From: an uncultured Granulicatella sp.
Lineage (GTDB): Bacteria; Bacillota; Bacilli; Lactobacillales; Aerococcaceae
Direction: 5' to 3'
DNA length: 64,000 bases
Assembly: GCF_963521425.1 (NCBI RefSeq)
Contig: NZ_CAUQUN010000005.1
Location: forward strand, 15,090-79,089
Below, in pieces: positions 25,363 through 63,537 of the stretch (position 1 is the first letter of the stretch; each line of letters starts with the position of its first letter). The notes below the pieces were generated by a model. The model made no database searches and was not told the origin of the DNA. It saw only the letters and a list, made by a program, of their open reading frames with translations. A program made the translations under genes and the position numbers.

Positions 25363-25467
25363 AAAAACAAGAAGAAAAAAATTTTTGTAGTGAAAATTAA
25401 CTATGAGCCTCGCATGCGAGGCTGCTGGCGACCTCACAAACAAAAAGATTTTTTTCTTGCCTTTTTT
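25363..25467 (-). repeat. Multi-hairpin repeat family, internally deleted copy E
   Basis: Keeps GGTCGCCAGCAGCCTCGC..GCGAG hairpin 1 and the A/T-rich terminal arms; lacks hairpins 2 and 3. Confidence 0.75.
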
Positions 25468-30733: not shown

Positions 30734-30755
30734 AATTACATGAATGGAGGAAATC

Positions 30756-31925
30756 ATGATGAGTAATAAAATTCCAGTAACCATTGTCAGCGGATTTTTA
30801 GGAGCAGGTAAAACAACGCTCATTAACAAAGTATTAAAAGAAAAACACGGCGAACATATTGCTGTAGTTATTAATGAATTTGGAGAAATTGGTGTTGACC
30901 ATCAATTTGTATTAGATGTAGAAGAAGAAATTTATCAAATGGATAATGGCTGCTTATGTTGTACTCTTCGTACAGATATTGCAGACATGTTAAAATCTAT
31001 TTTAATGGTCAAAGAACAAAACGGGATTAAAGTAGACCGTGTATTATTTGAAACAACTGGTTTAGCAGATCCTGCACCAATTGCTCAAACATTTATCAAT
31101 GTACCATTTTTAAATGAACATTTTATTTTAGACGCTGTTTTAACAGTTGTCGATTCAAAAAATTTCTTATATCAAACAACTCATCAAACTGAACCAGCAA
31201 AACAAGTTGGTTTTGCAGACAAAATCTTTATGTCTAAACATAGTTTAGTAGACGACACTATTTATGCAAAAGTCATTAACGAAGTTCGTTCTATCAATCC
31301 TTTTGCAGAAATTCAAGATTTAGATGCTCGTCCAGTAGAAATGAAAGATATGTTTGGTCTTGAATTATTCTATGCTTCTGAAAAGAAAATTTTAGAAATG
31401 CAAGAAAATTCTGAAGAAGAATATTGCGAAGCTTGTGGACATACTCATGCGCATGGCGAACACGATCACCATCATCACGATGAAGAACACTGTGAAGAAT
31501 GTGGACACTCTCACGCCCATGGGGAACACGATCACGATCATGATCACCACCATCATGATGAAGAGCATCACCACCACCACCATGATCATCACCATCATGG
31601 ACATCATCATCACAAGCATCACCACCACAGTGGTATTAATTCATTTGTTATTGAAACAGAGAAACCTCTTGTTTTAGCTCATATTAACGAATGGTTAAAT
31701 GAATTAGTTTATATTTACGGACCTGAATTATATCGTTATAAAGGGATTTTAAGCGTAGAAGGTTTAGATTATCAAATCATTTTCCAAGGGGTTCAAATGA
31801 GTTTTGATATTTCTCGTGGACGTGATTGGAACGATACAGAGCGTAAGTCGACTTTAGTATTTATCGGTAAAAACTTACCAGAAGATACATTAAGAGAAAG
31901 CTTCGTTGCTTGTACAAATAAATAA
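30756..31925 (+). CDS. COG0523 (CobW/YciC/ZigA-type) zinc metallochaperone GTPase with a His-rich insert
   Basis: GFLGAGKT, NEFG, GCLCC, ETTGLADP, LYRYKG, LVFIG. Confidence 0.92.
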   Translation: MMSNKIPVTIVSGFLGAGKTTLINKVLKEKHGEHIAVVINEFGEIGVDHQFVLDVEEEIYQMDNGCLCCTLRTDIADMLKSILMVKEQNGIKVDRVLFETTGLADPAPIAQTFINVPFLNEHFILDAVLTVVDSKNFLYQTTHQTEPAKQVGFADKIFMSKHSLVDDTIYAKVINEVRSINPFAEIQDLDARPVEMKDMFGLELFYASEKKILEMQENSEEEYCEACGHTHAHGEHDHHHHDEEHCEECGHSHAHGEHDHDHDHHHHDEEHHHHHHDHHHHGHHHHKHHHHSGINSFVIETEKPLVLAHINEWLNELVYIYGPELYRYKGILSVEGLDYQIIFQGVQMSFDISRGRDWNDTERKSTLVFIGKNLPEDTLRESFVACTNK

Positions 31926-31945: not shown

Positions 31946-32108
31946 AAAATAAAACAGAAAAACTTTTATCACTGTAGCAAGGTCGCCAGCAGCCTCGCTT
32001 TGCGAGTCTCATGGCTAAACTTCGAGCCTTGGTCTCGAAGTTCCCCTGTAATATAAGCCTCAGGCTTATATTACTTTTGCTACGGTGATCGTTTTTCTGT
32101 TTTATTTT
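31946..32108 (+). repeat. Multi-hairpin repeat family, copy A
   Basis: Terminal IR AAAATAAAACAGAAAAAC/GTTTTTCTGTTTTATTTT enclosing a stem and three hairpins; homologous to 48844-49618. Confidence 0.9.
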
Positions 32109-32284
32109 TTCCTTCTCTGACAAAATATATTTTTTCACAAATCTTCTTACTTTCTTATTGGAGTCTTCATATTATTTTCAAAATTTCACTCTATACTTTA
32201 GTCATTCCCAAATAAGAAATATTATCCTCCCAAGTTAAATATTTCAAAATCCTTTTTTCCACCGACCATTGTGTCGGTGGTTTT

Positions 32285-33100
32285 TTAATATTCTTGGAGA
32301 ATCACCATCATCTCATCCTTTAAAGAATTTTCCCAAAGGTTCAATGATTCCATTTTAAAATAGATTGTCGCTAAAAAACTTTTGTACATTGCTAAACGTT
32401 GATAACTTTCACGGCTTCCATCTAATTCTTCAAATCTTTGCTTTTTAATCCACTCACACAAAAGTTTTTGAGAAAGATTTCCAGACTCTATTCCAAAAAA
32501 GATTGCTAATCCTAATCTTCTTTCTTCTTCATCTATAAATGGTTGTTTACTCTTTTGAAAAATATCACTAATGACTTCTAATACTTCTAGTACATATTCT
32601 TGGGTACAAGCCGGATGAGAAATAATGGTTCCTAATAAATCTGCTCCATGAGCAAATGCGTGTACCCATCCCAACTTTTCATCATATCCCGTTCTGTCTT
32701 TTTCTCTTTTTAAATAACAAATTCCATGTTGAATCCAACTCGTTCTCTCAGAAGTTGTTAAACAAGAGTCATATCCACTTGTTTTATCCCCGTCTACTTG
32801 TAATATCATTCCCATTACAAGTGCTGAGAAAGAGCGATACGCTGTAGCGATACCAACTTCTTCCATTCTATACTCTAAAGGATTTGTGACAGTCATTTTT
32901 TCAATAAGCCAACGTAATTGTTCTTTTGTCATTAATTGTTCAAAAATAACTTGTCCAAATAAACAAAAAACTAAGTCATCTCGAATTTCTGGATTAGGAT
33001 TTCCTATATTCTCCCATAACCATTCTAATTCTTCTTGTGTTAACGCTAGATTATTGACTTGTTTTATTTTTAACTGAGAAATCATTTCTTGTTCTAACAT
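32285..33100 (-). CDS. DUF2785 family protein
   Basis: PEIRDDL, RSFSAL, GWVHAFAHGADLL, DEEERRL. Confidence 0.85.
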   Translation of the reverse strand: MLEQEMISQLKIKQVNNLALTQEELEWLWENIGNPNPEIRDDLVFCLFGQVIFEQLMTKEQLRWLIEKMTVTNPLEYRMEEVGIATAYRSFSALVMGMILQVDGDKTSGYDSCLTTSERTSWIQHGICYLKREKDRTGYDEKLGWVHAFAHGADLLGTIISHPACTQEYVLEVLEVISDIFQKSKQPFIDEEERRLGLAIFFGIESGNLSQKLLCEWIKKQRFEELDGSRESYQRLAMYKSFLATIYFKMESLNLWENSLKDEMMVILQEY

Positions 33101-33214
33101 GATAGTCACCTTTCTACTTATAAAGCCATTTTACAAAGCTTTCCTCTTACTAGGTATATTTTAACATAAAATAAGAAGGCTAAGCATTTCTGCCTAGCCT
33201 TCTTTTTACGCTTT

Positions 33215-33883
33215 TTATCGCATACTTTTTGGTTTTGATAATATTTCACTTGCGACAATTGCTTTTTTCCATTGCAAGTGATGTTTCAATACTCGGTTTT
33301 TTGTTGTATAGTTTGTTGCACTTTTTACGGCTTCTACCACTAATTCACCTTTTGAACCCATATGTTGAACTTCTTCTTCCTGTAATTGGATTGCTTCCAT
33401 TTCTTCTACAAAAGATCGAAGATGTTCTAATAATTCTTCCGGCAAATTCGGATTATTTAAATATAATCGTTTTAATTTTTCAGTATGAATTAATAGGGCA
33501 CTTCTTCTCATCGTATCAATTTCTTCGGAAGAAATAATCGACACTCTTTGAATGAGTTCCTTATCAAATACGGATAAAGAATAATCCTCTGGTGAAAATT
33601 GTCGAAAGACTTGTACAATTTTTAAAAATTGTTGTCTCATTTTCTCTGTATGAGATAATGTCGCTTTTGTTTCCGGCATTTCTTCCACAACAACATCTAC
33701 CACTTTTTGATTTTTGGGATGATGACGTTTAGGCGAAACGGATTTTTCTTGAAAAGAATGATTCAACCAATCGTGCAGTTGGTTAAATCCCTTTTCTTTA
33801 CTTTTCATTTTTAAATTAAGATAACTACCAGCAGACATGATCACGAGGATCAATATATACAAGAGAAAGAGTACAATATTCAT
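33215..33883 (-). CDS. Hypothetical membrane-anchored protein (YqfB-like position)
   Basis: N-terminal TM, C-terminal [13 protein letters not shown]; follows floA. Confidence 0.6.
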
Positions 33884-34884
33884 GATTCACTCTCAACAGA
33901 AGATTTGCTAATCGCTTCTCTCATATCTGTATCAGATTGAATATTTTTCAATTGATAGTAGTCCATGACTCCAAGTTTTCCATTACGAAGAGCTTCTGCC
34001 ATCGCTAATGGAATTTGCGATTCAGCTTCTACAACTTTTGCACGCATGCGTTGTACTTCTGCTAACATTTCTTGTTCTTGCGCTACGGCAAGAGAACGAC
34101 GTTCTTCAGCTTTAGCTTGTGCAATTTTCTTATCAGCTTCTGCTTGTTCTGCTTGTAATTTTGCTCCGATATTTCTACCAACATCAACATCCGCGATATC
34201 AATGGATAGAATTTCATACGCTGTACCTGCATCCAATCCTTTTCTCAAAATCGTTTGGGAAATAGAATCCGGATTTTCTAAGACTAATTTATGATGAGCT
34301 GCTGAACCAACTGTAGTAACAATTCCTTCCCCAACACGGGCAATAATTGTTTCTTCACCAGCACCACCAACTAATCGTTCAATATTAGCACGTACCGTTA
34401 CTTTTGCTTTTGCTTGAACTTCAATCCCATCCATCGCAACCCCTGCAATAACCGGAGTTTCAATCACTTTTGGATTAACAGACACTTGAACGGCTTCAAA
34501 CACATTTCGACCTGCTAAATCAATGGCAGCTGCTTGTTCAAATTCTAAGTCAATATTCGCACGTTGCGCTGCAATTAACGCATCAATGACTACATTGACA
34601 TTCCCACCTGCTAAATAATGGGCTTCTAATTCATTAATATCGATTTTTAATCCTGCTTTTGTTGCTTTAATCATCGGACGCACAATATATTGAGGAGCTA
34701 CTCGACGTAATCTCATCCCCACTAATGTGCCTACTCCAATTTTTACATCAGAAAAATACGCTGTGATCCATAACCCAATCGGCACAAATCTAAAAAATAA
34801 CATAACTACTGTTAAAATTAGAAATAGTATCACAATGAGCCCAATGACTCCTGTTGGATTATTGAATAAACCTTTTTCTAACAT
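33880..34884 (-). CDS. floA: Flotillin-like protein FloA
   Basis: [25 protein letters not shown]. Confidence 0.95.
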
Positions 34885-35513
34885 CTTACTCCCTCCTTCT
34901 CATTATTGTTCTCCAAAACTTGTACGACGATTTTACTTCCTTCTACTTTTACAACTTGTATCATTGTATCTTCTGGAATAACAAATCCCGTACTGACAAC
35001 ATCAACGATTTCTCCGTCTAGTTCAACCTTTCCGCTTGGACGTAATATCGTTAATGTTTTCCCTGTTTTATTGACTAAATCGTCATATACTTTTGAGGTT
35101 GAATAGCCTTTTGATTTTTTTAGAGAAGAAAGTAATACTAACCCTTCCTTATGAGAAAAATGATTTCCTCTTTTTACCAATAAAACTAACAAGGCTATTG
35201 CCAACAATAGTGACATTAAAATTAAAACGACTAAATCCATGACAGCCTGGTTTGCCCAGTACATCCCTCCTAATACGAATACTGTCCCTAACACTCCTAA
35301 AGCCCCAATTCCTGGAATTAATACTTCAAATCCTAAAAATAGAAACCCAAATACAAATAGGATAATGACGAAAAAGTTCCAGTATGGATGAAGGAAAGTA
35401 TAGGTTGCAAAACTTATTACTGTTATCACACTACCGAGTAGGTTCCATTTGGAGAACACAGAAATGAAAACACCAATAACAGCTACTAACAGTAATAATA
35501 AGTCTAGATACAA
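34878..35513 (-). CDS. NfeD family protein
   Basis: TM bundle with EVLIPG, C-terminal OB domain LRPSGKV...[11 protein letters not shown]; probable TTG start. Confidence 0.85.
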
Positions 35514-35620
35514 AAGACCACCCCCATTCGTTGCCATCATTATAGCACTTTCCTTTTTAAATACAACTGAATAATTATTATGAAATGCTTAAATTTAAAG
35601 AATGAAAACTATTTCTAAAA

Positions 35621-35914
35621 TTACGAAGGATAGTCTTCCATTTGAGCAAATTCTTTCGCTTGTTGCAGTTGTTTTTCAAACAATTCTAGATCAATAAATC
35701 TCGCTTGACGAGCAAATTCCTTATCTCCTACAAAAACAATCGCAACCGGAACTGTTAGTACTTGATACTGACTTGCCACTTCAGGATGCTGCGTTACATT
35801 TATGACTTCTAACGCTACTCCTTCTTGTTCTGTCACTTCTTCTACTCGTGGCTGTAACGCATGACAAACTCCACAAGTTTCGCTTCCTAAATAGATTACT
35901 TTAATATTTTTCAT
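35621..35914 (-). CDS. Thioredoxin family protein
   Basis: CGVC motif, VLTVP cis-Pro loop; GGAGG RBS. Confidence 0.85.
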   Translation of the reverse strand: MKNIKVIYLGSETCGVCHALQPRVEEVTEQEGVALEVINVTQHPEVASQYQVLTVPVAIVFVGDKEFARQARFIDLELFEKQLQQAKEFAQMEDYPS

Positions 35915-36057
35915 AAACTCACCTCCCATATAGTGTAACATTTTTAGAAAAAATTTCTTGTAAAATGCATTTCTGAATAGAAAATACTTAACAAACCTAG
36001 CTTCCATCTGTATAATGAAAAATGTCTTATAGATATTTTTAGAAAGTGAGTGAGAAA

Positions 36058-36777
36058 ATGGGACGTAAATGGGCTAACATCGTAGAAAAGAAAACTAAAC
36101 TCGATGCTAACAACAGTAAAATTTATGCAAAATTCGGAATTGAGATCTATGTAGCAGCAAAACAAGGCGAACCAGATCCACATTCTAACCAAAAATTAAA
36201 ATTCGTAATTGACCGAGCTAAAACATATAATGTACCTCGTCATATTATCGAACGTGCGATCGAAAAAGCTAAAGGTGGCGGCGATGGCGATTACCAAGAA
36301 TTACGTTATGAAGGATTCGGTCCTAACGGTTCTATGATTATCGTAGATGCACTAACAAATAACGTAAACCGTACTGCTGCAGACGTTCGTGCTGCTTATA
36401 GCAAAAATGGCGGAAACATGGGTGCACCTGGTTCTGTAACTTATTTATTCGACCATACAGCAATCTTCGGTATCGCAAACAAAGATGCAGACGAATTATT
36501 AGAACAATTAATGGAAGCAGAAGTAGACGTTCGTGACGTTGTACAAGAAGACGACCAAGCAATCGTTTATGCTGAACCAAACGACTTCAACACAGTTCGT
36601 ACAGCATTAGAAGGATTAGGAATTTCTGAATTCACAGTATCTGAAATCGAAATGATTCCTCAATCAGAAGTAACATTAACAGGCGATGACTTACGTTTAT
36701 TTGAACGTATGATTAACGCTTTAGAAGATAATGAAGACGTTCAAAAAGTTTACCACAATGTAAACTTAGAAGACTAA
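36058..36777 (+). CDS. yebC: YebC/PmpR family protein
   Basis: [25 protein letters not shown]. Confidence 0.95.
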
Positions 36778-36804
36778 TTATTGTTGATTTTTACGAAATA
36801 TGAC

Positions 36805-36848
36805 AAAAAGTCTGTCCTAGGAGAGGTTCTCCTGCGACAGACTTTTTT
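36805..36848. terminator. Bidirectional terminator
   Basis: AAAAAGTCTGTC...GACAGACTTTTT between convergent genes. Confidence 0.7.
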
Positions 36849-36861
36849 GGTTTGAGATTAT

Positions 36862-39828
36862 TTAAAAATTATCTTTATTGTTTTTTCTTTTAACGAAAAC
36901 CCCACCTATTAAACTTAGGAATCCTAACCATGTTGGAAGTAACTCTGCTTGCCCTGTTTTTGGTAGTTCATTTGAATGGATTTCTTCAGTATTATTTTGT
37001 GTTGTTTCTTGTTGAGATACTATTGTTTCTTCAGAGGATTGCTCTACTTCTACCGAAGGAGAAGAAGGCATTCCATTCCCTTCTGGTACATTCGTATGAG
37101 ACTCACTAGTCATTTCTTTATAATAGTGTGTTGTAATTCCATCTTCTTCATGAGTCGATTCATATTGATATTGTTTACTATCTTTGGTAATCATCCCTTG
37201 TTTTGGACCAAAATGACTTACCTCAGTTGGAACAAGTTCTTCATTGGATCCAATAATAATATGACGAGTAATTAATAGGGGAGCTACGGGATGAATCGCT
37301 AGTTCGCCCTTTTCACTCACGACACCTTCAGGTAACGCTGGCTGGACTTCCGGTTCACCTTTCTCGCTCACAATTCCTTCTGGTAATTCCGGCTGTACTT
37401 CTGGTTCACCTTTTTCACTAGAGTATTCTACAAAGTCATAAATAATTGTTTTTTCATTTTCATCAACCGTACCTATTTCAGGCGCTGAAGTAGCACGATG
37501 TTCTTTATAGAAATAAGTCTTCCCATCTTTTCGAAGCAGTGTTCCCACTTTTGGAGCAACAGACGTATATTCCTCACCGAGAGAAGCATCTTGTTTTAAG
37601 ACTTTCCCTTCAGCTATTTCAGTAGTTGTTCCTTCTAACATATATTTTTCAAATACATTTCCACCAGTTGCTAGTTTATAAACATAGGTAATTTCAGTAG
37701 TTCCCGATCCTACGTTTCCTTTTTCTGCAGGGGAACCCTCTTTCAATCCTACTAGTTTATATTTTTTACCATCTTTTATGATTTCGGGTAGTTTTACTAT
37801 TGTAGCATCATAGAGAACTTCTTTGTTTGTTGTCGTTTGTGTTCCTACTATTACTTTATTATTGCCCTTATCTAGGTAATATTTAGCTTCTGTAGATGAT
37901 ATCACTGCATCTTTAACAACATCTGCAGTTTCTTTAATAGAAGTTCCATCCGCTAATTCATACTTAACAATGACTCTACCCTTATTTTCAGTCGTTTCTG
38001 TTTCTTCCTTAGCGTAGATGTTTTTAACATTAGTTAATTGGTCACTAACGTGGTAGGCACGAGTTGGTTGATATAAATTGTAATAATGAATTTCACTATA
38101 AATAGGAGCAGAAACTGACGCATGTTCATCATATTTAGTAGGTGCAGTAATTCTATATCGAACTCCATCTTTTTCATATTCTTTATATAATTGACCTAAT
38201 CCATATTGAAATCTAGTATCATCACCAGAATATTTAAAATCTGAGTATCCCAATATATAAGCTAAATAAGTTTTCGCTGGTTGATTAGAATCATCATCTT
38301 CACTAGGATAATAAGAATCTGTACTCTTATCTCCTAATTTAAAATCAATATTTACTTCAAACACATTTTTTACAAAAGTTGCATTTGTTGGAACTCGGTC
38401 GACATACTGAATTGCTTTATGATTCTCTTTAAACTTTGTAACATTTGCTTTTTCACTCTCATAGTTAGCAGTTTCCTTAAACTCTTCAATATTTCCAACA
38501 AATTTTGGTTCCACTTTATCTCGAGAATTTTTCCATCCTACTGTGATTTCCTTTTCACCAAACATTTCTTTTAACTTAGCAATATATGTTGTCACATCGT
38601 GATACTCTACAAATTGCCCGTTTTCTCTTATATAACCATTAAACTCTTGATGTACAGAATAAGTTGGACGGTTCTTTTTATCAACTACAGCTTTATTTGC
38701 TAATGTAATCTTATAGATTTCTTCCCATGTCTTTTCTTTTGCAGGATTCATGACATCTTCGTCTTTTAAATCTCTTAATCTATCATCTAAAAGATTATTT
38801 AACCCCTCTTCTAATTGATTCTCATTAAAAAATGCACCAGCTGTATAAGCTGCTTTTTCGGTTGCTGTTGAAACAGAGTCTTTTAACGCTACCTCATTTT
38901 TTTCAACAACTAATATAGTATCTCCTTCCTTAATTCCACCATCAGTTGTTATATTTTCTTTTGTAAAATCTTTAGCATCATTTTCACCTTGTTTAAATGT
39001 TTCAACAGCCCAAGAATCATTGGCTGTAGTTGGTTTTGTGGCTAAAACATACTTCCCATATTTTCCTTCATCAGTTTCAGAAACTAACCAAACTCGACTA
39101 CCTTCTTTAATATTGTTATAGCGAATACTTCCGTCTTCATTATGTAAGTTGCCAGGATTTGCATGTACTGTAATATCATTAAACGTTGTTTCCTTAGTAG
39201 TTCCTTCATGTTTATCTACTACTGTATCAATCTTATGATATTTTTCTCCATTCTTTTCTAAAACTTTATCAGCTTCTTTGATTTTAGTTAAGACATCATT
39301 ATTTAAATTCGCTACATTTCCTTCATAACGTTTTCCAAAAAGTCCGCGTATTTTATAGTTCATTGTACTACTAGCAGTTTTTTTATCACCAACAGAGATT
39401 TCTACATCCGATTCTTCTTTTAGAACTTCACCTTCTTTTGTGACATAAGAAATTCTTGAATCCTTAAAGTTATCTTCTCCTTGTTTTTTGATATTTTCCT
39501 TTTCAACTCTGTCTAAATTATATTTGGCTCTATCTTCATTTACACGGTGATTTATTTCATACCCACCTTCTGTACCTGCTCCATTGTAACTCAATCCACT
39601 AAACACATGCATTTTCGGCATTGTATAGCTACCAGCACTATTACTCAAAGTTTCCATTTCCACATTATCTTTTGCAGGGGTAACCGTACTTTCCTTAGGC
39701 GTGTTTGCTTCAGCCAATACCGGACTAGCTCCAACAATCATCATCCCTAACAAAACAGAAGCAGCACCAATCCCTTTATATTTACGTAATGAATATTTTT
39801 GTATTTTTTCTGAACCTATTTTTTTCAT
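36862..39828 (-). CDS. Sortase-anchored surface protein/adhesin with MucBP-like domains
   Basis: YSIRK-type signal KYSLRKYKGIGAASV, MucBP-like segments, EKGEPEVQP repeats, LPKTG plus TM and basic tail. Confidence 0.85.
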   Translation of the reverse strand: MKKIGSEKIQKYSLRKYKGIGAASVLLGMMIVGASPVLAEANTPKESTVTPAKDNVEMETLSNSAGSYTMPKMHVFSGLSYNGAGTEGGYEINHRVNEDRAKYNLDRVEKENIKKQGEDNFKDSRISYVTKEGEVLKEESDVEISVGDKKTASSTMNYKIRGLFGKRYEGNVANLNNDVLTKIKEADKVLEKNGEKYHKIDTVVDKHEGTTKETTFNDITVHANPGNLHNEDGSIRYNNIKEGSRVWLVSETDEGKYGKYVLATKPTTANDSWAVETFKQGENDAKDFTKENITTDGGIKEGDTILVVEKNEVALKDSVSTATEKAAYTAGAFFNENQLEEGLNNLLDDRLRDLKDEDVMNPAKEKTWEEIYKITLANKAVVDKKNRPTYSVHQEFNGYIRENGQFVEYHDVTTYIAKLKEMFGEKEITVGWKNSRDKVEPKFVGNIEEFKETANYESEKANVTKFKENHKAIQYVDRVPTNATFVKNVFEVNIDFKLGDKSTDSYYPSEDDDSNQPAKTYLAYILGYSDFKYSGDDTRFQYGLGQLYKEYEKDGVRYRITAPTKYDEHASVSAPIYSEIHYYNLYQPTRAYHVSDQLTNVKNIYAKEETETTENKGRVIVKYELADGTSIKETADVVKDAVISSTEAKYYLDKGNNKVIVGTQTTTNKEVLYDATIVKLPEIIKDGKKYKLVGLKEGSPAEKGNVGSGTTEITYVYKLATGGNVFEKYMLEGTTTEIAEGKVLKQDASLGEEYTSVAPKVGTLLRKDGKTYFYKEHRATSAPEIGTVDENEKTIIYDFVEYSSEKGEPEVQPELPEGIVSEKGEPEVQPALPEGVVSEKGELAIHPVAPLLITRHIIIGSNEELVPTEVSHFGPKQGMITKDSKQYQYESTHEEDGITTHYYKEMTSESHTNVPEGNGMPSSPSVEVEQSSEETIVSQQETTQNNTEEIHSNELPKTGQAELLPTWLGFLSLIGGVFVKRKNNKDNF

Positions 39829-40005
39829 AGAATCCTCTTTTCCAATTCTTCATTGTTAAATAAAATTTATACTGTATCCTGTTAATCATAGCATTCTAAT
39901 TTTTAGTTATCAAACAGTTATATAATTAATTCACAAATATATTTTTTACTTTTAAAAAGAATTTTTCCTAAAAAATTAATATTAAATTAGTATTATAAAT
40001 AATTA

Positions 40006-41325
40006 TCATGATTTGTTTATTAATAAATATTTTTTTGAAACCTCTTCTATTGAGTAATCTTTCACAAAAGAAATCGTATGATTCACTATAATTTCATTTT
40101 CTGATTCATATAAATTTTTAACAATATTTGCTAATTCATCCGGTGAATCAAACAAGCAAACATCTGGATTTTTAGCTGCATAATATTGATGCGCAATTTC
40201 TACATTAGATAATAACGGAATTAAACCAAAACTCATTGCTTCAACACAAGCATTCGCAAATAATTCCTTTTGAGAAGTAGAGATATACCCATCATGTTTC
40301 CAATACGGCACTTCATCTACATAACCAACAATATGAATATTAATAGGTAAATTCTCATACTTCTCTTTTAATTGATTCAAATCTCCCCCATAGAGAGAAA
40401 CTTCGACGGGAACTCCCTCTTTCTCCAATTGCCTAAAGGTTTCAATAATCCATCCTACTCTTTTTACTTCTGTCATATTCCCAACATAACAATAAGAACG
40501 AGGATTACTTCTTTTTGTAACTACAGATTCATTTTGAGGAGCATAAATTGGTGGCATAAACCATGTATGATAGCCTAAATCTTGTAAAATATCTGATAAA
40601 ACTTCAGAAGCTACTAAGTATCGTGTTTTTCTTCTCAAATTATGTGCGGGATCTTTCAATACATTATTATGAATATATTCAAAATATTTTCGATTCGTAT
40701 TTTCTACAAATCGCCATAATTTTGGTGTCACAACGTTATGTTGATCTCGAATCAGAAAGTCATTCTTATCGGTAAGCTTGATTAATACTTGAATCAATAA
40801 ATCTTCGTACATTAACCATTCTCCGTCTTTATAATATAAGTAATTATCCTCCATCATATAAATAGGAGTCGGTTCTTCTTTCGGTTTATAATACCTGGCT
40901 CTCATCGCTGTCGTTCCATCTCGATTAAGCCATTCTAATTCCTCTTTTTTATTTTTCTTTAAAAATAATCCTGAAGTAAAATATAATGTTTCTTCTTCTA
41001 ATTCCATACTTGCTACAAAGCCATTCATAACGGTCATTTTCCCATTTGGATATTTTTCGATAATATCAGAAGGGCGAACACTTAATTCATCATGTCCAAT
41101 ATCTGACTGATAATGAGAGATTGATATCAATTCATTACGTTGAAATCCTATTTTTTCATATCCAGCTTTCCAATCTGGTCGAACTTGAGGATGCGTTAAA
41201 ATATAGAGATGTCCCCATCCTAAATATTCAGCTATTTTCTTTCTTGATAATTGAGAGGACTCAAATCCATATTTTTTGACAGTTTCTTTCCAAAGTCCTG
41301 GATGTATCGTAACCATTTTAACCAT
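40006..41325 (-). CDS. Glycosyltransferase, GT-B fold (GT4, GtfA/GtfB-like)
   Basis: YVGNM..VKR, STSQKELFANACVEAMSFG resembling the GT4 E-x7-E motif. Confidence 0.7.
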   Translation of the reverse strand: MVKMVTIHPGLWKETVKKYGFESSQLSRKKIAEYLGWGHLYILTHPQVRPDWKAGYEKIGFQRNELISISHYQSDIGHDELSVRPSDIIEKYPNGKMTVMNGFVASMELEEETLYFTSGLFLKKNKKEELEWLNRDGTTAMRARYYKPKEEPTPIYMMEDNYLYYKDGEWLMYEDLLIQVLIKLTDKNDFLIRDQHNVVTPKLWRFVENTNRKYFEYIHNNVLKDPAHNLRRKTRYLVASEVLSDILQDLGYHTWFMPPIYAPQNESVVTKRSNPRSYCYVGNMTEVKRVGWIIETFRQLEKEGVPVEVSLYGGDLNQLKEKYENLPINIHIVGYVDEVPYWKHDGYISTSQKELFANACVEAMSFGLIPLLSNVEIAHQYYAAKNPDVCLFDSPDELANIVKNLYESENEIIVNHTISFVKDYSIEEVSKKYLLINKS

Positions 41326-41462
41326 AAATGACTCCTCGATTCTCTTATTCTAATCTACTTTTAAATCGCACCTATTTACTCATATATTACCATAAACAAA
41401 ATGAAATTGATGCCATAAAAAGAGGACTATCAACATATAGCCCTCTAACTTTTGTGTTCTAT

Positions 41463-41551
41463 TTACTTTTCCAATTTTGATAATTTAGGGCTCAATTTCT
41501 CCTGTAATCATTCATCGAGAAAGTTTTCTTTAGGAGAATAACAATCTCAAC
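41463..41551 (-). pseudogene. Decayed remnant of a second copA-type ATPase gene
   Basis: 41467-41496 matches the copA 3' end at 26/30 nt (KLSKLEK*); adjoining frameshifted ENFLDE/MITGE matches cop[13 protein letters not shown]. Confidence 0.6.
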
Positions 41552-41700
41552 TTTTGAAAAACATTTATAAAGCCCTTACAAAAATTAATTATACATCAAT
41601 TTTTTCTAAAATATAAGTCTATTTTTTTCTGAATTTATATTTTAGAATATGGATAAGATAAGGAAAACTAGATACCTAATGTGAATGGAGATGAATAAAA

Positions 41701-41892
41701 ATGAGTAAGTTTTTATTTGGTAATTATTTATTTTACGGTACTGTTTTTGGCGTAGGAACAGTACTACTTATATATTATTTCTTACCTGACTTTTTCTTGT
41801 TATTTGTTCATCTCTCGACTATTTGTTTTTATCTAGGATTACTGTATGCTTTCCTTAAATTCGTGTTCAAAAAAATTAAAAATAGAACTTAA
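41701..41892 (+). CDS. Small 2-TM membrane protein (63 aa)
   Basis: GGAG RBS, two hydrophobic helices, basic tail. Confidence 0.6.
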   Translation: MSKFLFGNYLFYGTVFGVGTVLLIYYFLPDFFLLFVHLSTICFYLGLLYAFLKFVFKKIKNRT

Positions 41893-41985
41893 AATATTAC
41901 TCATCATGCCAACTTAAATGGTGTTGGTGTTATTTTAGATTTGAATTGATAGTCAAAATTTGCTTATTACCCAAGGTGATTATAA

Positions 41986-42144
41986 ATGATAACAGTATTT
42001 GTATTTGTTATAGGTTTGATTTCAGTGACAATAAGTATTGTATTAGTATATAAAAAGAAGATTCAAGAATTTAATCCAATGAGTTTTTTAATATTTGTAT
42101 TAATATTAATATTTATTTTAGCTGTAGTTTCAATGCAACATTGA
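41986..42144 (+). CDS. Small 2-TM membrane protein (52 aa; absent from the ORF track)
   Basis: AAGGTGA RBS; MITVFVFVIGLISVTISIVLVYKKKIQEFNPMSFLIFVLILIFILAVVSMQH. Confidence 0.55.
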   Translation: MITVFVFVIGLISVTISIVLVYKKKIQEFNPMSFLIFVLILIFILAVVSMQH

Positions 42145-42203
42145 AGTAACTCTTGAATAAATTTTACTTAATAGATGTAATATGAATGTTTGGAGGGATT
42201 GAT

Positions 42204-42380
42204 ATGAAGTTTTATGAAATAATCATCTATATTACTTTTATATTTTTAGCCTTATTAGTTTGGTTTACCAATATTCTCGATTCATTTCCATTTCTTAAAC
42301 CAGTAATTGTTATATTTTGTATTGCTAGTTTTTACTACAATGTTATATTCCCAAGAAACAAAGACATGGATATAAAATAA
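42204..42380 (+). CDS. Small 2-TM membrane protein (58 aa)
   Basis: GGAGG RBS; MKFYEIIIYITFIFLALLVWF... Confidence 0.6.
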   Translation: MKFYEIIIYITFIFLALLVWFTNILDSFPFLKPVIVIFCIASFYYNVIFPRNKDMDIK

Positions 42381-42392
42381 TGAAGGAATAAT

Positions 42393-42433
42393 TGAAGCGA
42401 CCTCAAAAAATTAAACTTTTTGGGGTCGCTTCA
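42393..42433. terminator. Bidirectional terminator hairpin resembling fused IS3-type ends
   Basis: TGAAGCGACCTCAAAAAA-TTAAAC-TTTTTGGGGTCGCTTCA. Confidence 0.6.
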
Positions 42434-42439
42434 TCTTTT

Positions 42440-44692
42440 TTATTTTTCCAATTTAGATAATTTATGATTCAATCGCAATGCGTTTAGCACAACTGATACG
42501 GAACTGAAACTCATCGCTGCTCCTGCAATCATTGGACTTAATAGTGGACCTCCAAAGAAATGTAAGACGCCCATTGCTACTGGAATTCCAATTACATTAT
42601 AAATAAATGCCCAGAATAAATTTTCTTTAATCGTCATCATTGTCATTTTGCTTAATTGAATCGTTTTAGCCACTAATCTTAAATCATCTTGCATCATGAC
42701 CATATCGGCAGTTTCAATGGCAACATCTACTCCAGATCCAATCGCAATTCCGACTGTTGCTTTAGCAAGTGCAGGTGCATCATTAATGCCGTCTCCTACC
42801 ATGGCTACTTGATAGCCTTCGTCTAATAATTGTTGGACAACACTTGCTTTTTCATTTGGTAATACTTGACTATATACTGTCTCAATTCCTACTTCATTCG
42901 CAATTGCTTTGGCTGTTTTTTCATGATCTCCTGTTACCATTCTAACTTGAAGCCCTAATGCTTTCATTTGTTGGATTGCTTCTTTACTAGTTGCTTTAAT
43001 CGTATCCGCAACTACAATAATTCCGGCTACTTGTTTTTGAATGGCTACGAACATCGCTGTTTGCCCCTGAGAAGCGACTCCATCAATCACTGTATTATAA
43101 TCATCTACCGCAATTCCTTGATTTTGTAATAATAAATGATTTCCTAGTAACACTTCTTTTCCATCTACAGTTCCTTGAATTCCCATACCAGAAATAGATT
43201 GGAATTGTTCAATTGGTAAAACGTCAAACTCTCGTTTTTCAGCTTCTTCCACGATGGCTTTTCCTAATGGATGTTCAGAATGTTTTTCAATTGATGCTGC
43301 TATGTTTAGTACTTCTTCTTTTGAATAATCGTTGAATACTTGAATATCGACTACTTTAGGTTTACCGTTTGTAATCGTTCCTGTTTTATCTAGTAAAACA
43401 ACACCTACATGTCCAGCTTCTTCTAAAGCCGCACTACTCTTAATTAAAATCCCTCTTTTAGCACCGAAACCTGTTCCTACCATAATGGCAGTTGGAGTGG
43501 CTAATCCTAACGCACATGGACATGCAATGACTAACACAGAAATCATCACGGTTACGACAAATTCAAAAGATTCTCCACCAATCAATCCCCAATATAGACC
43601 TGCTAAGAGAGATAATCCCATTACGATTGGAACAAAAATTCCGGCTACACGGTCTGCAATAGCAGCAATTGGAGCTTTAGATCCTTGGGCTTCTTCTACT
43701 AAACGAATAATTTGAGATAATGTTGTATCTTTCCCAACTTGGCTCACTTCTACTTGGAATGAACCAGTTGTATTCAACGTAGCACCAACCACTTTGCTTC
43801 CTTCTTTTTTGAATACTGGTACACTTTCACCTGTAATCATGGATTCATCAACAAAGCTCTCTCCAGAAAGAATGACACCATCAACAGGAATTTTTTCACC
43901 TGGTCGAACGAAGACTACTTCGCCAACTTGTAATTCCTCTACTGGAACCTCAACTTCTTTTCCATCACGAATGACTGTTGCCACTTTTGGAGATAAAGCA
44001 ACTAACGATTGAATCGCCTGAGAAGTTCTTCCTTTTGTTAAAGTTTCAAAATATTTTCCTACGGTAATAAAAGCTAAAATCACTGCTGCAGATTCTACAT
44101 AGAGATGCATCACATAATGATGCTCTCCACCAAAAATACGAATGGTACTCCATACACTATATAAAATGGCAGCACTCGTTCCCAGTGCGACTAATGAATC
44201 CATATTCGGATGCTTTCTAATCAATGCCTTAAATCCATTCACAAAATAACTACGACCCACCCATAAAATAGGAGTTACTAAAATCAATTGCGTTACAGAA
44301 AATACAATTGGATGTTCCATCGGTTGTAAGATTTGTGGGAGAGGAAGTCCAATCATTTCACCCATCGCAATATAAAGTAATACAATGGCAAACACACCTG
44401 ATACCCATGCTCTTACTTTAAGTGATTGCAATTGTTTTTCTTTTTTAATTGCTGTTTTTTCTAACACATCTTCTTCATCATTTATCAATATAGCCTGATA
44501 TCCAGCTAGAGAAACAGTTTCAATAATTTTTTGTACATCTGCTTCCTTTGGATTAAATTGCACCATCATTTTTTCAGTTGCTAAATTCACATTGGCTTCT
44601 TTAACGCCTGGAAGATCTCGGACAACTTTTTCAACCGTACTGACACAACCTGCACATTGTAATCCTTCTAATGCAAATTCTTCTTTCTTCAT
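42440..44692 (-). CDS. copA: Cu(I)-exporting P1B-type ATPase
   Basis: CAGC metal-binding domain, TGES, CPC, DKTGT, SEHPL, GDGIND, YN..MSFSS. Confidence 0.95.
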
Positions 44693-44714
44693 GATTAACA
44701 ACTCCTTCTTACTA

Positions 44715-44924
44715 TTATGCTAATTCAGCTTGATATCCTGCTTTTGATACAGCTTCTATAATTTTTTGTTCCTCTACTTTATCTTGTAGAAATTCTACAG
44801 TCAGCTTTTTAGCTTCGAAATCAACACTTGCTTTTTCAACACCTGAAACAGCACTTACTGCATTTTCAACAGCTTTCGCACAACCTGAACATTTTAATCC
44901 TTCTACTTTAAATTCTTTTATCAT
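44715..44924 (-). CDS. copZ: Copper chaperone
   Basis: GLKCSGC HMA motif, 69 aa from ATG 44924. Confidence 0.9.
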
Positions 44925-44945
44925 TTTAAAAACCGCCTTTCTTAA

Positions 44946-45000
44946 ATTTACATTTGTAAACTTCATAAATTTATTATACCTCTTATTTTAAAAAAGTCAA
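44946..45000 (-). promoter_or_regulatory. copZA promoter with a cop box
   Basis: TTGACT/TATAAT; ATTTACATTTGTAAAC (44946-44961) fits the CopY box TACAnnTGTA with flanks. Confidence 0.75.
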
Positions 45001-45039
45001 CAGAAAAAAAGGAAGACTAAAAAGTCTTCCCTAGAAATG

Positions 45040-46281
45040 TTATTCTACTAATTCAGGACGAACGTTAATTACTCGTCCTTCTTTTTTCCATTGACGGAAT
45101 TCTGCTGCTGCTGTGAATAAAACATCTGTTGATGAATTTAAGGCAGTTTCACAAGAATCTTGGATTACCCCAATAATAAATCCAACCCCAACAACTTGCA
45201 TCGCAATATCATTTGAAATTCCGAATAAACTACATGCAACAGGAATTAATAATAATGATCCACCTGTTACCCCAGAAGCACCGCATGCTGCTACTGTTGA
45301 TAATACACTTAGCACTAAAGCTGTTAAGAAGTCTACTTGAATTCCTAAAGTATTAACGGCTGCTAGTGATAATACTGTAATTGTAATTGCTGCACCCGCC
45401 ATATTAACCGTTGCCCCTAGAGGAATAGATACTGAATAGCTATCTTCATCTAATCCTAAATCTCTACATAATTCCATGTTTACTGGAATATTTGCTGCTG
45501 AACTACGAGTAAAGAATGCTGTAATTCCACTATCTTTCAAGCAACGGAATACTAATGGATATGGATTTTCTTTAATCATAAAGAATACAATAATCGGATT
45601 CATTATTAATGCTACAAAGAACATACTTCCAACTAGCACTAAAATTAACTCACCATAATTCGCAAATACCCCTACTCCATTTTCTGAAACAGTTGTATAA
45701 ACTAATCCCATAATCCCAAATGGAGCAAAACTAATGACTACTTTAACAACATGACTTGTTGCATCTGCCACTTGTTGTAAAAATGATTTTGTAGTTTCAT
45801 CTGCTTTACGAAACGCAAAACCAAATACAACTGCCCAAGATAAAATACCAATATAGTTCCCACTCATTAAAGCATTCACTGGATTATCTACTAATTTTAA
45901 AATTAATGTTTGTAATACAGAAGCGATTCCTTCTGGTGCTTTAATTTCTGACACTGTATCTGTTAATGTTAATGTAATTGGAAATGCAAAACTAACAAGA
46001 ACTCCCACTAATGCTGCTGCAAAAGTTCCAAACAAATATAATATAACAATTGATTTCATATTTGTTTCATGTCCTTCTTTATGTTGTGCTAAAGCACTTA
46101 ACACAATAAAGAATACTAATAATGGTGCGATTGCTTTTAACGCACTTACGAATACTGTTCCGATAGTTCCTACCGCTGCTGCTTGAGGAACGAAAATTCC
46201 TAATAAAATACCGATAATCATACCAATAACGATTCGGTTAATCAAACTTAATTGATTCCAAAAATTTAATACTTGTTTCAT
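45040..46281 (-). CDS. sstT: Serine/threonine transporter (DAACS family)
   Basis: [35 protein letters not shown]. Confidence 0.93.
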
Positions 46282-46444
46282 CTTATTGCCCCTATTCTAT
46301 TTATATAGCGACAATCATACACAAACAAACCCTATTCTGTCAATAAAAATCCACGAATTAGATACATTTGTATCTGTATAGAAAACACTTCTTTTTCACT
46401 GCTTTTGAGAGGAAGAAATATAAAATTTTTAATGATATGACTTT

Positions 46445-46550
46445 TCTACGCCATTTTGAAGATTTTGGCTATGAAAAATTAGCGATGGCGAGATTAATCT
46501 ACGCCATTTTTGACGTTTTGGCGTAGAAAAACTAAAATTGGCGAGATTAG
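46445..46550. repeat. Tandem duplication of a 53-bp hairpin-containing unit
   Basis: Units 46445-46497 and 46498-46550, each TCTACGCCA...TGGC...TGGCGAGATTA. Confidence 0.75.
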
Positions 46551-46603
46551 CCTCTATAAACACAAAAAACTACCGAGCCCATTTACTCGATAGTTACTAT
46601 ATA

Positions 46604-47968
46604 TTATTCTTCTATTTCTTCTTCGTTTTCTTCTTGTTCGTACGCTTCTACTTCTTCTGGAGTTAGTAAGTGTACATGAATACGACGAATTCTTCCATTT
46701 TCTACTAAAGTTGGTTTTAATAGAACATTTTCTTGACGAACTTCTACTACTTCGTCATCTTCAGGAAAATACCCTAATTCTTCTAAAATAATTCCCGCCA
46801 TCGTATCCACTTCATCTGAATCAATCGTTGTTTGGAATATTTGATTGAATTTTTCTAATGTCATTCCCGCATCAATTAAGAAATTCTTCTCATCAATTTC
46901 ACGGTAACTCATTTCTTCCACATCATACTCATCTTCAATTTCTCCGACGATTTCTTCAATTAAGTCTTCCAATGTCACAACACCTTCAACTCCACCATAT
47001 TCGTCTTTTAAAATCGCCATATGTTGACGTGTTTTTCTAAATTCTACTAATAAATCATCTACGAAAATTGTTGAAGGAACAAATAATGGCTGATGCGCTA
47101 AATCCATTAATTGGATTTGATCAAAACCTTGTTCTTTTGCTGCTCTTAAAACGTCTTTAGAATGTAAAACTCCAATGACATTATCTTTATCTTCTTCATA
47201 AATTGGGAAACGTGAATAAGAACTACTTAAAATGATTTCGATATTTTCTGCTAAATCATCTTCCACATCAAGCATTAATGTGTCCGTTCTTGGTACCATC
47301 ACTTCTCTAGCTAATTTTGAATCAAGAGATAAGACCCCTTGAAGCATGGTGAATTCTTCTTTATCGATTGCACCATCATTGCGACTATTCGCTAGAAGAA
47401 AATTCATTTCACTACGTGTTAATTTTTCTTGTTCATTATTAAATTCAATCGGTGTCATTCGTTTTAAAATGCCTGTTGAAACGGTTAAAATCCAAACAAA
47501 TGGTTTAGATATCTTTTTGACAAATAAAATAATTCCTGCCGTATGTAAGGCAATCGGTTCTGCCAATTGTAAGGCAACTTGTTTTGGATATAATTCCCCA
47601 AACACTAATGTTAAATACGATAAGATTACGGTCACAATTAGTATTGCTAGCGTTTCTGCACCCGGTACATTTTCCAATAATGGTTGAATACGCGAAGCAA
47701 AACTGGTTGCGGCAGAAGCACTCGAGAAGAACCCTGCTAAAGTAATCGCTACTTGAATAGTTGCTAAAAATTCATCCGAATTTTCTAATAAACGTATTAC
47801 TCGTTGCGCCTTTTTATCTCCTTCACTCGCTTTTTGACTCATCTTTCCTTGATTGACCGATACAAAGGCAATCTCCGCCGCTGCAAAAAATGCATTTATG
47901 GCAGTTAATAGTACAATAATTAAAATCTGGATTCCCAGCGAACTCCCATCAGAATCTGCTGTCATCAT
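46604..47968 (-). CDS. HlyC/CorC (CNNM) family transporter, DUF21-CBS-CorC
   Basis: FFAAAEIA, GELYPK, MVPRT, DEYGGVEGVVTLEDLIEEIVG. Confidence 0.92.
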   Translation of the reverse strand: MMTADSDGSSLGIQILIIVLLTAINAFFAAAEIAFVSVNQGKMSQKASEGDKKAQRVIRLLENSDEFLATIQVAITLAGFFSSASAATSFASRIQPLLENVPGAETLAILIVTVILSYLTLVFGELYPKQVALQLAEPIALHTAGIILFVKKISKPFVWILTVSTGILKRMTPIEFNNEQEKLTRSEMNFLLANSRNDGAIDKEEFTMLQGVLSLDSKLAREVMVPRTDTLMLDVEDDLAENIEIILSSSYSRFPIYEEDKDNVIGVLHSKDVLRAAKEQGFDQIQLMDLAHQPLFVPSTIFVDDLLVEFRKTRQHMAILKDEYGGVEGVVTLEDLIEEIVGEIEDEYDVEEMSYREIDEKNFLIDAGMTLEKFNQIFQTTIDSDEVDTMAGIILEELGYFPEDDEVVEVRQENVLLKPTLVENGRIRRIHVHLLTPEEVEAYEQEENEEEIEE

Positions 47969-48186
47969 TCAGTTATCCCCTTTACTTTGTTAATTTTTTA
48001 AAAATATACAAATATCATACTCACTTTTGTGTGAAAATGCAAGATATGTCCATTATATAGAGATTTTTGCTCCCTATTTTAATAAATTTCTCGTTACTTT
48101 TTAATCAAAAAGTGGTATTATCAATAATGAAAACGTGTCTATATTTTACAAAACACGAAAATTGATTTCAAGAAAGGGGCATGTCT

Positions 48187-48825
48187 ATGCTATTAAAATC
48201 ACTTGTTATTCCTAAAAAGAGTTTAACGGTTGTTAAAGAATCTTGTACTCTTGAAGAAGCGATTGTTATTTTAGAAAACTCTGGATATCGTTGCGTTCCA
48301 GTTTTAGATGAAACAGAAACTTTCTTCCGTGGAAATATTTATAAAATGCACATCTATCGTCATAAAGCAAATGGAGGCGATATGAGCTTACCGGTTACTC
48401 ATTTAATTAAAAACACTACGAAATTTATTAATATTACGAGTTCGTTCTTCAAAGTGTTCTTTACGATTAAGGAATTACCTTATATTGCTGTGTTAGATGA
48501 TTCGCAACGTTTTTATGGTATTTTAACGCATAGTAGTTTATTAAATATGCTTCAAGAGTCTTGGAGTGTGAATAATGGTTCTTTTGTTTTAACAATTATT
48601 TCTGGTGGAGAAAAGGGATCATTAGCTCAAATTTCTAAGATTATTAATCAATATGCTTCTATTGCCAATGTTATGACATTAGATACAGAGAAAGATCGTT
48701 CGCTTCGTCGTCTGTTAATTACTCTTCCAGCAGGAGTTTCAAACGAAACATTGAATCAAATTGTTGCAGCCCTAGAGAAAAAAGATTTCTCAATTGCTGA
48801 AGTGGAAGATTTGAACGACTACTAG
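48187..48825 (+). CDS. cbpA: c-di-AMP binding CBS-domain protein CbpA
   Basis: GYRCVPVLD...GNIYKMHIY, ELPYIAV, ACT-like C-terminus. Confidence 0.8.
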   Translation: MLLKSLVIPKKSLTVVKESCTLEEAIVILENSGYRCVPVLDETETFFRGNIYKMHIYRHKANGGDMSLPVTHLIKNTTKFINITSSFFKVFFTIKELPYIAVLDDSQRFYGILTHSSLLNMLQESWSVNNGSFVLTIISGGEKGSLAQISKIINQYASIANVMTLDTEKDRSLRRLLITLPAGVSNETLNQIVAALEKKDFSIAEVEDLNDY

Positions 48826-48843
48826 ACGGTTAGACAATTAGAC

Positions 48844-49016
48844 AAAAATAAAAACAGAAAAAGTCTACGCTTGAGTAGCTAGGGACGCTAGTAGCCTCGC
48901 TTTGCGAGTCTCTTAGCTAAAAATTGAGCCTCGGTCTCAATTTTTCCCGTACTATAAGCCCGTGCGGCTTATAGTACCAAAGCTACAGCGCTCCAACTTT
49001 TTCTGTTTTTATTTTT
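48844..49016 (+). repeat. Multi-hairpin repeat family, copy B
   Basis: Same architecture as copy A with compensatory substitutions. Confidence 0.9.
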
Positions 49017-49253
49017 TGTGTGCCTTTGAGTTATCTCAACTTTAAAAATTATTTTCTTCAGTATATCTGACTCCCATCATAACCATAGTTCCTCTCATGT
49101 CCTGTAAAAACGACTTACATCGTGCCTTTACATTTTTGACACTTATCTTTTTGAAAGTACGCTGAATGAGTTATTTTAGTCAAACAATCTAGAAACCTTT
49201 AATTAGTATTTTACTCAAATAGGAGTTATTTATCGTAAAAGATCATTCCATGT

Positions 49254-49421
49254 AAATAAATCAGAAAAAGATGGAGCTTTGTAGCTTGAGTAATATAAGC
49301 CTTCTCGGCTTATATTACAGGAAAAAACGAGACCTTAGGCTCGTTTTTTAGCCATGAGATTCGCAAAGCGAAGCTGCTGGCGTCCTTAGCTACCAAAGCG
49401 TAATCTTTTTCTGCTTTATTT
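49254..49421 (-). repeat. Multi-hairpin repeat family, copy C (inverted)
   Basis: Reverse-complement homologue of A and B. Confidence 0.9.
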
Positions 49422-49457
49422 TTTCGCACTCTCCTTCACCTTATTTCCAAAGTGAAT

Positions 49458-49618
49458 GAAAATGAAAATACTAATAGCCGTAGCATTGGTGATATAAGCC
49501 AGATTGGCTTATATCACTGAGAAATTCGAGACCTAGGCTCGAATTTTAGCCATGAGATTCGCAAAGCGAAGCTGCTGACGTCCATTTGCTACAGCTATTT
49601 TTAGTTGTTTTCTATTTC
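49458..49618 (-). repeat. Multi-hairpin repeat family, copy D (inverted, tandem with C)
   Basis: Reverse-complement homologue; outer arms diverged. Confidence 0.85.
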
Positions 49619-49630
49619 TATTTTTTATTT

Positions 49631-52801: not shown

Positions 52802-52814
52802 GATTCTTCTCCTC

Positions 52815-63380: not shown

Positions 63381-63452
63381 CTGGGGTAGCTGGATTCGAA
63401 CCAACGAATGACGGAGTCAAAGTCCGTTGCCTTACCGCTTGGCTATACCCCA
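63381..63452 (-). tRNA. tRNA-Gln (anticodon TTG)
   Basis: TGGGGTATAGCCAAGCGGTAAGGC...CTTTGAC...GGTTCGAATCC; CCA not encoded. Confidence 0.97.
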
Positions 63453-63453
63453 A

Positions 63454-63537
63454 TGGTGGAGGGGGGCAGATTCGAACTGCCGAACCCTAAGGAGCGGATT
63501 TACAGTCCGCCGCGTTTAGCCACTTCGCTACCCCTCC
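63454..63537 (-). tRNA. tRNA-Tyr (anticodon GTA)
   Basis: GGAGGGGTAGCGAAGTGGCTAAACGCG...CTGTAAA, long variable arm, GTTCGAATC, encoded CCA. Confidence 0.97.

Follow-up and report, generated by a model that had tools for sequence, protein, structure and literature searches.

We analysed a 64,000-nucleotide (nt) stretch of the genome of a Granulicatella elegans-like bacterium (hereafter the window, whose strands we follow; the source genome is G000), in which a first-pass annotation made from the letters alone had described a dispersed family of multi-hairpin repeats. We find that the core of this repeat, a four-way junction made of a closing stem and three hairpins, also occurs in streptococci, where it is carried by a small gene-less element whose ends match those of IS1182-family insertion sequences (ISs). 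It seems rather probable that a non-autonomous IS1182-family element, that is, a miniature inverted-repeat transposable element (MITE), carries the repeat as its structured cargo. We also report that the Rfam family RF02616 (SSRC8_2) is a whole MITE copy, and that the strong covariation of the repeat can be produced by template switching from one arm to the other in DNA and is no proof of a selected RNA.

A streptococcal carrier of the IS1182 family

In streptococci of the parasanguinis/australis group, to which the multi-copy streptococci with named records belong, the core lies inside a gene-less element of about 250 base pairs (bp) whose start directly follows a terminator and whose end is followed by a second copy of it. 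The carrier measures 250-290 bp overall (median 251 among 53 sites with both ends), with the core just inside its left end. An IS1182-family element in G142 (locus L196) has the same left end, a matching right end and the same duplicated terminator, its gene being interrupted by stop codons, and the same left end stands ahead of IS1182 transposase genes in G559, G552 and G539; in G142 and these three genomes the cognate transposase is present in the same genome. Among 112 distinct streptococcal sites, the left end (up to 4 mismatches) was recognised at 60, the right end at 63 and both at 36, and the flank was duplicated over at least 10 bases at 40 of the 112, against 20 of 2000 mismatched pairs. 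Recent mobility, in the form of near-identical copies at unrelated sites, was seen in G587, where all seven fetched copies are 292 bp long with 0-4 differences and the hairpin is duplicated at six of the seven; this genome also holds core-less MITEs with the same left end. A rough count of the co-orientation and position bias of the MITE gave about 64 versus 6.

The streptococcal homologues therefore show two traits of MITEs, ends matching an autonomous IS1182 and a duplicated hairpin target. The IS1182 family targets hairpins, and the available portions of the two articles concerned describe deletion or replacement of the target, not duplication (PMC4923244, PMC5678879). Known ISs and MITEs of this family (NF033551; IS1272/TnSha1) resemble the streptococcal carrier in their targeting of hairpins or terminators, as far as those articles could be consulted (PMC4923244, PMC5678879), in ends that match a co-resident IS1182 and in a gene-less carrier. 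However, IS1272 deletes or replaces its target hairpin, whereas the streptococcal carrier duplicates it and, unlike known IS1182 MITEs, bears a conserved four-way junction as cargo. In streptococcal MITE copies, other small hairpin cassettes were observed within the core at fixed points, before hairpin 1 and between hairpins 1 and 2 (L614, L622, L627, L633, L635). Some streptococcal copies have in their flank an inserted repeat that we take to be BOX-like (L054).

Read as its reverse complement, the core corresponds to positions about 135-245 of SSRC8_2, and the whole Rfam model corresponds in the same sense to an entire MITE copy, although the family has been presented as one regulatory RNA and not as a repeat. 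All five copies in G559 exceed the SSRC8_2 cut-off, and one (L601) aligns along the full 281 positions at 340.8 bits, with both ends and the flanking terminators included; a neighbouring protein in this genome is identical to an S. pyogenes protein. According to the portions of the original report available to us, SSRC8 of S. pyogenes was detected by Northern blot and mapped by rapid amplification of cDNA ends (RACE), and the homologues given for other streptococci span no more than positions about 142-250, which is the core (PMC3675131). The Rfam search proposed in the first-pass annotation yielded, for the window copies, two matches to SSRC8_2 of 35.9 (E 3e-08) and 33.7 bits, at positions 146-209 on the opposite strand, below the cut-off of 72 bits. 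The claim that the repeat could be matched to nothing familiar thus holds for BOX, RUP and SPRITE as described but fails for the reverse complement of SSRC8_2. Only a THF riboswitch (3451-3550, minus strand) and two tRNA genes (63381-63452 and 63457-63537, both minus) reached an Rfam cut-off in the window.

The core also occurs in other settings. In G164 an ISLre2 element (three fetched copies) holds it at the 3' end, as do 0 of 29 related ISLre2 loci; because only 1 of the 30 ISLre2-type loci scanned contains it, we regard it there as a passenger and reject ISLre2 as its parent. An ISLre2-like transposase gene lies in the source genome itself (G000:C31:13804-14898, minus strand), on a contig with no repeat copy listed. 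Single, old copies inside operons were found at grpE-dnaK, purD-purE, yqeH-yhbY and purC-purL (gene names assigned by eye from translations), mostly antisense to the orientation in the window, and the copy in the infB-rbfA operon is in the sense orientation. The grpE-dnaK spacer holds the core in several streptococci (L061, L393, L401, L407, L577, L579); in S. mutans this spacer reportedly has a regulatory role.

Repeat copies in Granulicatella

A profile hidden Markov model (HMM) built from the four copies first described gave 99 matches in G000 at E<1e-15, and the rebuilt HMM used for the final counts gave 164 non-overlapping matches at E<0.01, against none at E<1 in the reversed genome; a scan for the core motif gave 131 matches versus 16 in a shuffled genome. 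The repeat is therefore a dispersed family, as had been claimed, and makes up about 1% of the genome. Full length was found for 113 of the 164 copies, the remainder mostly being without hairpins 2 and 3. Among 140 genomes of the family Aerococcaceae, the exact pattern was found in 15, all within Granulicatella. Records named G. elegans hold the pattern, and neighbours of a protein of the window bear that name. A covariance model (R1) located 145 copies in G063 and 89 in G064, whereas two genomes of the sister Granulicatella clade, G060 and G081, gave none. The same model matched the four-way-junction core in 139 of 151 Streptococcus genomes, with 1 to at least 19 matches each, and in none of 143 other Bacilli genomes or 150 other genomes of the phylum, all of these sets being samples. 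The proposed scan of the genome and its relatives thus extended the family to Streptococcus and to no other genus searched. Plasmids and phages scanned gave no match, and pattern matches in viral contigs and high-GC genomes were, where inspected, apparently chance matches inside genes. We claim no jump between classes, because streptococcal genes surround all five copies in the record labelled Oribacterium (L275/G608), which is probably a mislabelled bin.

The copies are closely tied to gene ends. By a simple caller of open reading frames (ORFs), 141 of 161 placeable copies are co-oriented with the gene behind them and 20 are not, and 91 of 109 first-in-array copies begin within 35 bases of a stop codon (median 14). 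In a first count, convergent genes flanked 51 copies, tandem genes 97 and divergent genes none, while spurious ORFs overlay 7 and another 9 stood at the ends of contigs, compared with 61 convergent, 464 tandem and 97 divergent intergenic regions of at least 100 bases; some of the 7 copies under spurious ORFs actually lie between divergent genes. Since each copy in a convergent region follows its own gene, orientation follows transcription and not the replication fork. The copies sit 3' of unrelated genes, and not, as a riboswitch would, 5' of functionally related ones. A CG-containing target motif behind stop codons was considered and set aside (30% versus 26% background). Tandem units are spaced about 170-190 bases apart and linked by a conserved spacer; the 3' spacer was found in 31 of 113 trailers against 0 of 2000 random windows, and 23 of its 24 genome-wide matches stand directly behind a copy.

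The site of copy 2 of the window is occupied in 14 of 14 clade relatives among the matches listed, and that of copy 1 holds, in 12 relatives, a full copy in six, a short one in two and a remnant in two, the contig breaking off there in two more. At no fewer than 10 loci of the sister Granulicatella clade (L090-L099), the copy-1 site is taken by a plain terminator hairpin. In four regions compared among five relatives, a match was obtained in 41 of 45 orthologous intergenic regions and remnants in the other four, and no region has a copy that G000 lacks, so the search for empty sites suggested at the outset found none that was clean. Neither presence/absence differences nor near-identical copies indicative of recent mobility were seen in the G. 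elegans clade, and by eye no duplicated hairpin target was found among the copies listed. Instead, arrays of 0-4 units change in place at sites fixed across sister species, through deletion of hairpins 2 and 3 and exchange of hairpin variants; the unit nearest the stop codon is usually full, whereas those farther away shrink to the closing stem and T-tract. Behind cbpA, the sister clade carries a different family of modular hairpin cassettes that starts on the same stop codon (L122-L136), with cassette number and type varying in almost every species among those listed; R1 did not match these loci (7 scanned).

A second IS1182, 27% identical to the cognate subgroup, accounts for the remaining IS1182 matches in Granulicatella. 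In G064 it is present in 12 near-identical copies that replace terminator stems (L137-L148), 9 of which lie just behind a stop codon and are co-oriented (by eye), so that IS1182-type targeting gives the same position bias as that of the repeat. This element has also replaced hairpin 2 (L141) or hairpin 3 (L258) of the repeat, and the hairpins therefore form in DNA. The GAGGCTGGGC-type IS1182 of the clade was rejected as the parent of the repeat, as its ends do not match and it instead targets the repeat.

All four full copies of the window were located where the first-pass annotation had placed them. Copy 1 (31946..32108, plus strand; 136.5 bits) has a long closing stem, P0, enclosing the three hairpins and begins 21 bases past the stop codon of a CobW/YjiA-type GTPase gene (30744..31925, plus). 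The inner arms of its P0 (GTAGC at 31974-31978 and GCTAC at 32079-32083) are lengthened by A-rich and T-rich arms. Within P0, hairpin 1 (31985..32015) has a conserved GC/CA internal loop and an exchangeable tip, hairpin 2 (32018..32042; GAGCC-n-GTCTC) is the most conserved part and keeps a mismatch or bulge, and hairpin 3 (32048..32074) is a perfect 12-bp stem of freely varying sequence that also scores as terminator-like. Copy 2 (48844..49016, plus; 126.3 bits) lies directly behind cbpA, which encodes a cyclic di-AMP-binding protein (48181..48825, plus; NF038387, 357 bits, cut-off 150). Tail-to-tail with it, copy 3 (49254..49421, minus; 140.5 bits) is the second unit of a tandem pair of which copy 4 (49458..49618, minus; 132.3 bits) is the first, behind a gene for an FtsX/MacB-type ABC-transporter permease (49631..52852, minus; weak family matches only). 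A fifth, short copy overlooked at first (about 25370..25460, minus) retains the closing stem and hairpin 1, has lost hairpins 2 and 3, and stands directly behind an ORF (25467-27026, minus). Contigs from sequencing runs showed only strain variation around the copies; the spacer between copies 2 and 3 (49017-49253) is strain-variable, with 104 other bases replacing 235 in the contig of run X24.

Folding and covariation

Copy 1 folds far better than its shuffled versions (z = -11.1 as DNA, -13.1 as RNA of the plus strand and -11.3 as RNA of the minus strand; 0 of 200 shuffles as good in each case), and both strands fold equally well. The common fold proposed for the four copies was recovered by RNAalifold, which gives the closing stem and three hairpins with 8 of 40 pairs altered on both sides. 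The motif pairs quoted in support of it are all present, but the initial description omitted that copy 4 closes hairpin 1 with GTCA/TGGC, which contains a G-T pair, and that the outer A/T arms of this copy are imperfect. In a larger alignment of 89 copies (77 from G000 and 12 streptococcal), 94% of cells pair, double changes occur in 35 of 40 pairs and the covariation score is 0.456, against 0.153 when shuffled and at most 0.087 when slid, all of these figures being inflated by the relatedness of the copies. Covariation thus persisted in a larger alignment; its loss there had been named in advance as what would refute structural selection. A possible pseudoknot between a GGAC linker and hairpin 2 was discarded, its columns being invariant or without covariation.

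RNA under selection is expected to favour G-U pairs on one strand. A copy-by-copy parse of the stems in G000 found Watson-Crick pairs in 2486 of 2540 cells, with 20 G-T, 16 A-C and 18 other pairs in the remainder; the ratio of G-T to A-C (20:16, p 0.62) and those of two further sets (14:15 and 5:12) give no sign of the strand-specific wobble tolerance of a structured non-coding RNA or riboswitch. Moreover, the loops occur in both orientations. In the parasanguinis-type MITE, each common hairpin-1 loop is accompanied by its reverse complement (24/17, 20/8, 6/4 and 6/5), and the hairpin-3 loop is inverted in 1 of 12 near-identical G587 copies. Duplicated terminator copies also sometimes have mutually inverted loops (L383, L342, L223), and so flipping reaches ordinary terminators. 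Template switching is described, in the available text of one study, as yielding perfect stems and multi-base compensatory changes in a single event (PMC8794818). Because G-T and A-C pairs are equally frequent and loops are found in both orientations, covariation is here no proof of selection on RNA. The earlier proposal that structure rather than sequence is maintained is accordingly sound in that pairing is kept while the sequence changes, but not as a statement about selection on RNA.

Parts of the structure are nonetheless kept unpaired. The GC/CA internal loop of hairpin 1 is found in 82 of 103 parsed copies, with a coupled GT/CT variant in 14, and the mismatch of hairpin 2 is retained in 101 of 113 full copies and perfected in 3. 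Both features are conserved across the two genera, which speaks against pure drift.

Origin and possible role of the repeat

In the history that we consider rather probable, the 250-290-bp element lands on an intrinsic terminator, co-oriented with the gene, and duplicates the hairpin, as it does in Streptococcus. The core would have passed from streptococci to the G. elegans clade and may there have spread once to about 110 gene ends by targeting hairpins in the same way, where it would have taken the place of the terminators and later lost its recognisable ends. Its stems may stay perfectly paired mainly as folding into hairpins occurs in DNA and one arm then serves the polymerase as template for the other, so that template switching, together with exchange between copies, would maintain them. 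The closing stem with its T-rich tail is probably a terminator or 3' protector of the host mRNA, a role that would guard copies against loss.

Several observations weigh against such a history. No IS1182 transposase was found in G000, a 98% complete draft in which repeats may be unassembled, and of 44 Granulicatella genomes, 43 gave no trace of the cognate subgroup and the other (G072) holds one short fragment. The left end of the MITE (up to 4 mismatches) occurs in 10 of 113 G000 leaders versus 11 of 565 shuffled ones and the right end in 8 of 113 copies versus 16 of 339, a weak excess on the left and none on the right, so the copies of the window and of G000 do not have terminal inverted repeats matching an autonomous IS1182. 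Because they fail on both ends and transposase, we do not classify the window copies as MITEs; they differ from IS1182 MITEs in having no recognisable ends and in forming tandem arrays with a spacer of their own, the 3' spacer being without a streptococcal counterpart. With no clean empty site among the 45 orthologous regions, no insertion footprint was seen in Granulicatella. A T-tract was found in 20 of 113 copies but shows no termination, the count being uninterpretable because the tract pairs with the A-rich arm, and a simple scan gave no terminator-like site at 48700-49750. The core also occurs without MITE ends inside ISLre2 and operons. Finally, a MITE requires nothing beyond its ends, and mismatches ought to be erased by template switching, yet the junction, the GC/CA loop and the mismatch of hairpin 2 have all been preserved.

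These kept features raise the question whether the core is itself a mobile unit of single-stranded DNA (ssDNA), recognised through its mismatches by a candidate HUH/Y1-like enzyme or recombinase and inserted into the IS1182 MITE, ISLre2, operon spacers and Granulicatella gene ends. We consider this unlikely, though it would account for the four settings of the core (MITE, ISLre2 3' end, operon spacers and end-less arrays), for core-less MITEs with the same ends, and for mismatches that persist alongside wobble pairs without strand bias. Bulged hairpins serve as enzyme sites in IS608 and in REP elements. A comparison with REP/BIME/REPIN-RAYT systems, drawn from part of a published account that also treats such hairpins as enzyme sites (PMC6006769), shows that they too are numerous behind stop codons, have imperfect hairpins in which mismatches persist, and come in tandem and inverted arrangements. 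Unlike REP, however, the repeat is a unit of about 150 bases with three hairpins; its GTAG is not a free guide tag but is paired, variable and covaries with the 3' arm of the closing stem. No RAYT or Y1 gene lies in the genome or beside copies, and a Y1/IS200/RAYT partner was rejected, with no Y1 transposase in G000 and no copy at 30 Y1 loci of the family. Inspection by eye (N-termini) of 549 ORFs adjoining copies in about 310 loci revealed no recurrent HUH or recombinase gene, and several end-less streptococcal copies have, by eye, decayed left ends. More broadly, one might tentatively see in the four-way junction with its kept loop and bulge a unit of oral lactic-acid bacteria that is mobile or selected in its own right, a folded ssDNA read by a candidate protein, which would hitch-hike on unrelated transposons and, in G. 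elegans, have replaced about 110 terminators without transposon ends by a route tied to the transcribed strand.

A functional RNA structure of the 3' untranslated region, be it a terminator, an exonuclease block or a small RNA like SSRC8, under selection at the transcript level, would fit the strict co-orientation and proximity to stop codons, the fact that each copy in convergent regions follows its own gene, and the reduction of distal units to a stem plus T-tract; the operon-internal streptococcal copies are long-lived, and in S. pyogenes SSRC8 gave a Northern-blot signal and had its ends mapped by RACE (part of PMC3675131). We nevertheless find this explanation doubtful. Neither strand prefers G-U pairs and both fold equally, transcription of SSRC8 and of most operon-internal copies uses the strand opposite to that of the Granulicatella 3'-UTR copies, the host genes are unrelated in function, and the same bias of position and orientation is found in the protein-coding IS1182 and in the MITE. 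It is very improbable that the repeat is a streptococcal repeat already described. The part consulted of a survey of BOX, RUP and SPRITE from S. pneumoniae and of S. suis BOX-type repeats (PMC3049150) presents these as likewise small, gene-less, structured, enriched between convergent genes, and, after a past burst, now mostly dormant, BOX being modular as well. In S. suis, boxE (115 nt) and boxF (133 nt) together reach about the length of the MITE, and SPRITE is likewise located near gene 3' ends (PMC3049150). Yet SPRITE is a single 18-bp duplex followed by a U-rich tract, not a four-way junction, and boxE and boxF surround boxB modules and are reported, in the text available, for S. suis only (PMC3049150), where SSRC8 has no BLAST homologue in strain BM407 (PMC3675131, Table 4). 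BOX, RUP, SPRITE and boxE/F differ from the repeat in architecture, a distinction drawn from published descriptions, not from sequence comparison. The repeat is not described in the accessible portions of PMC2828477, PMC9241797, 10.64898/2026.10.21.760802, 10.1101/2025.07.22.666184 or 10.1101/2024.06.02.596822, and the main text of 10.64898/2026.10.21.760802, as far as it was available, mentions neither genus. No description of it as a repeat was found in the literature searched, which covered few subscription papers and not ISfinder, and the family is apparently undescribed as such.

In summary, our results recast a catalogued small RNA family of S. pyogenes, RF02616, as a MITE copy, and describe a repeat family that occupies about 1% of one Granulicatella genome and is present in 139 of 151 streptococcal genomes. 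They also provide a clean example in which strong covariation, normally taken to prove that an RNA is functional, can arise from template switching in DNA. For Granulicatella, it becomes testable whether about a hundred mRNAs have recruited a transposon cargo as their 3' end.

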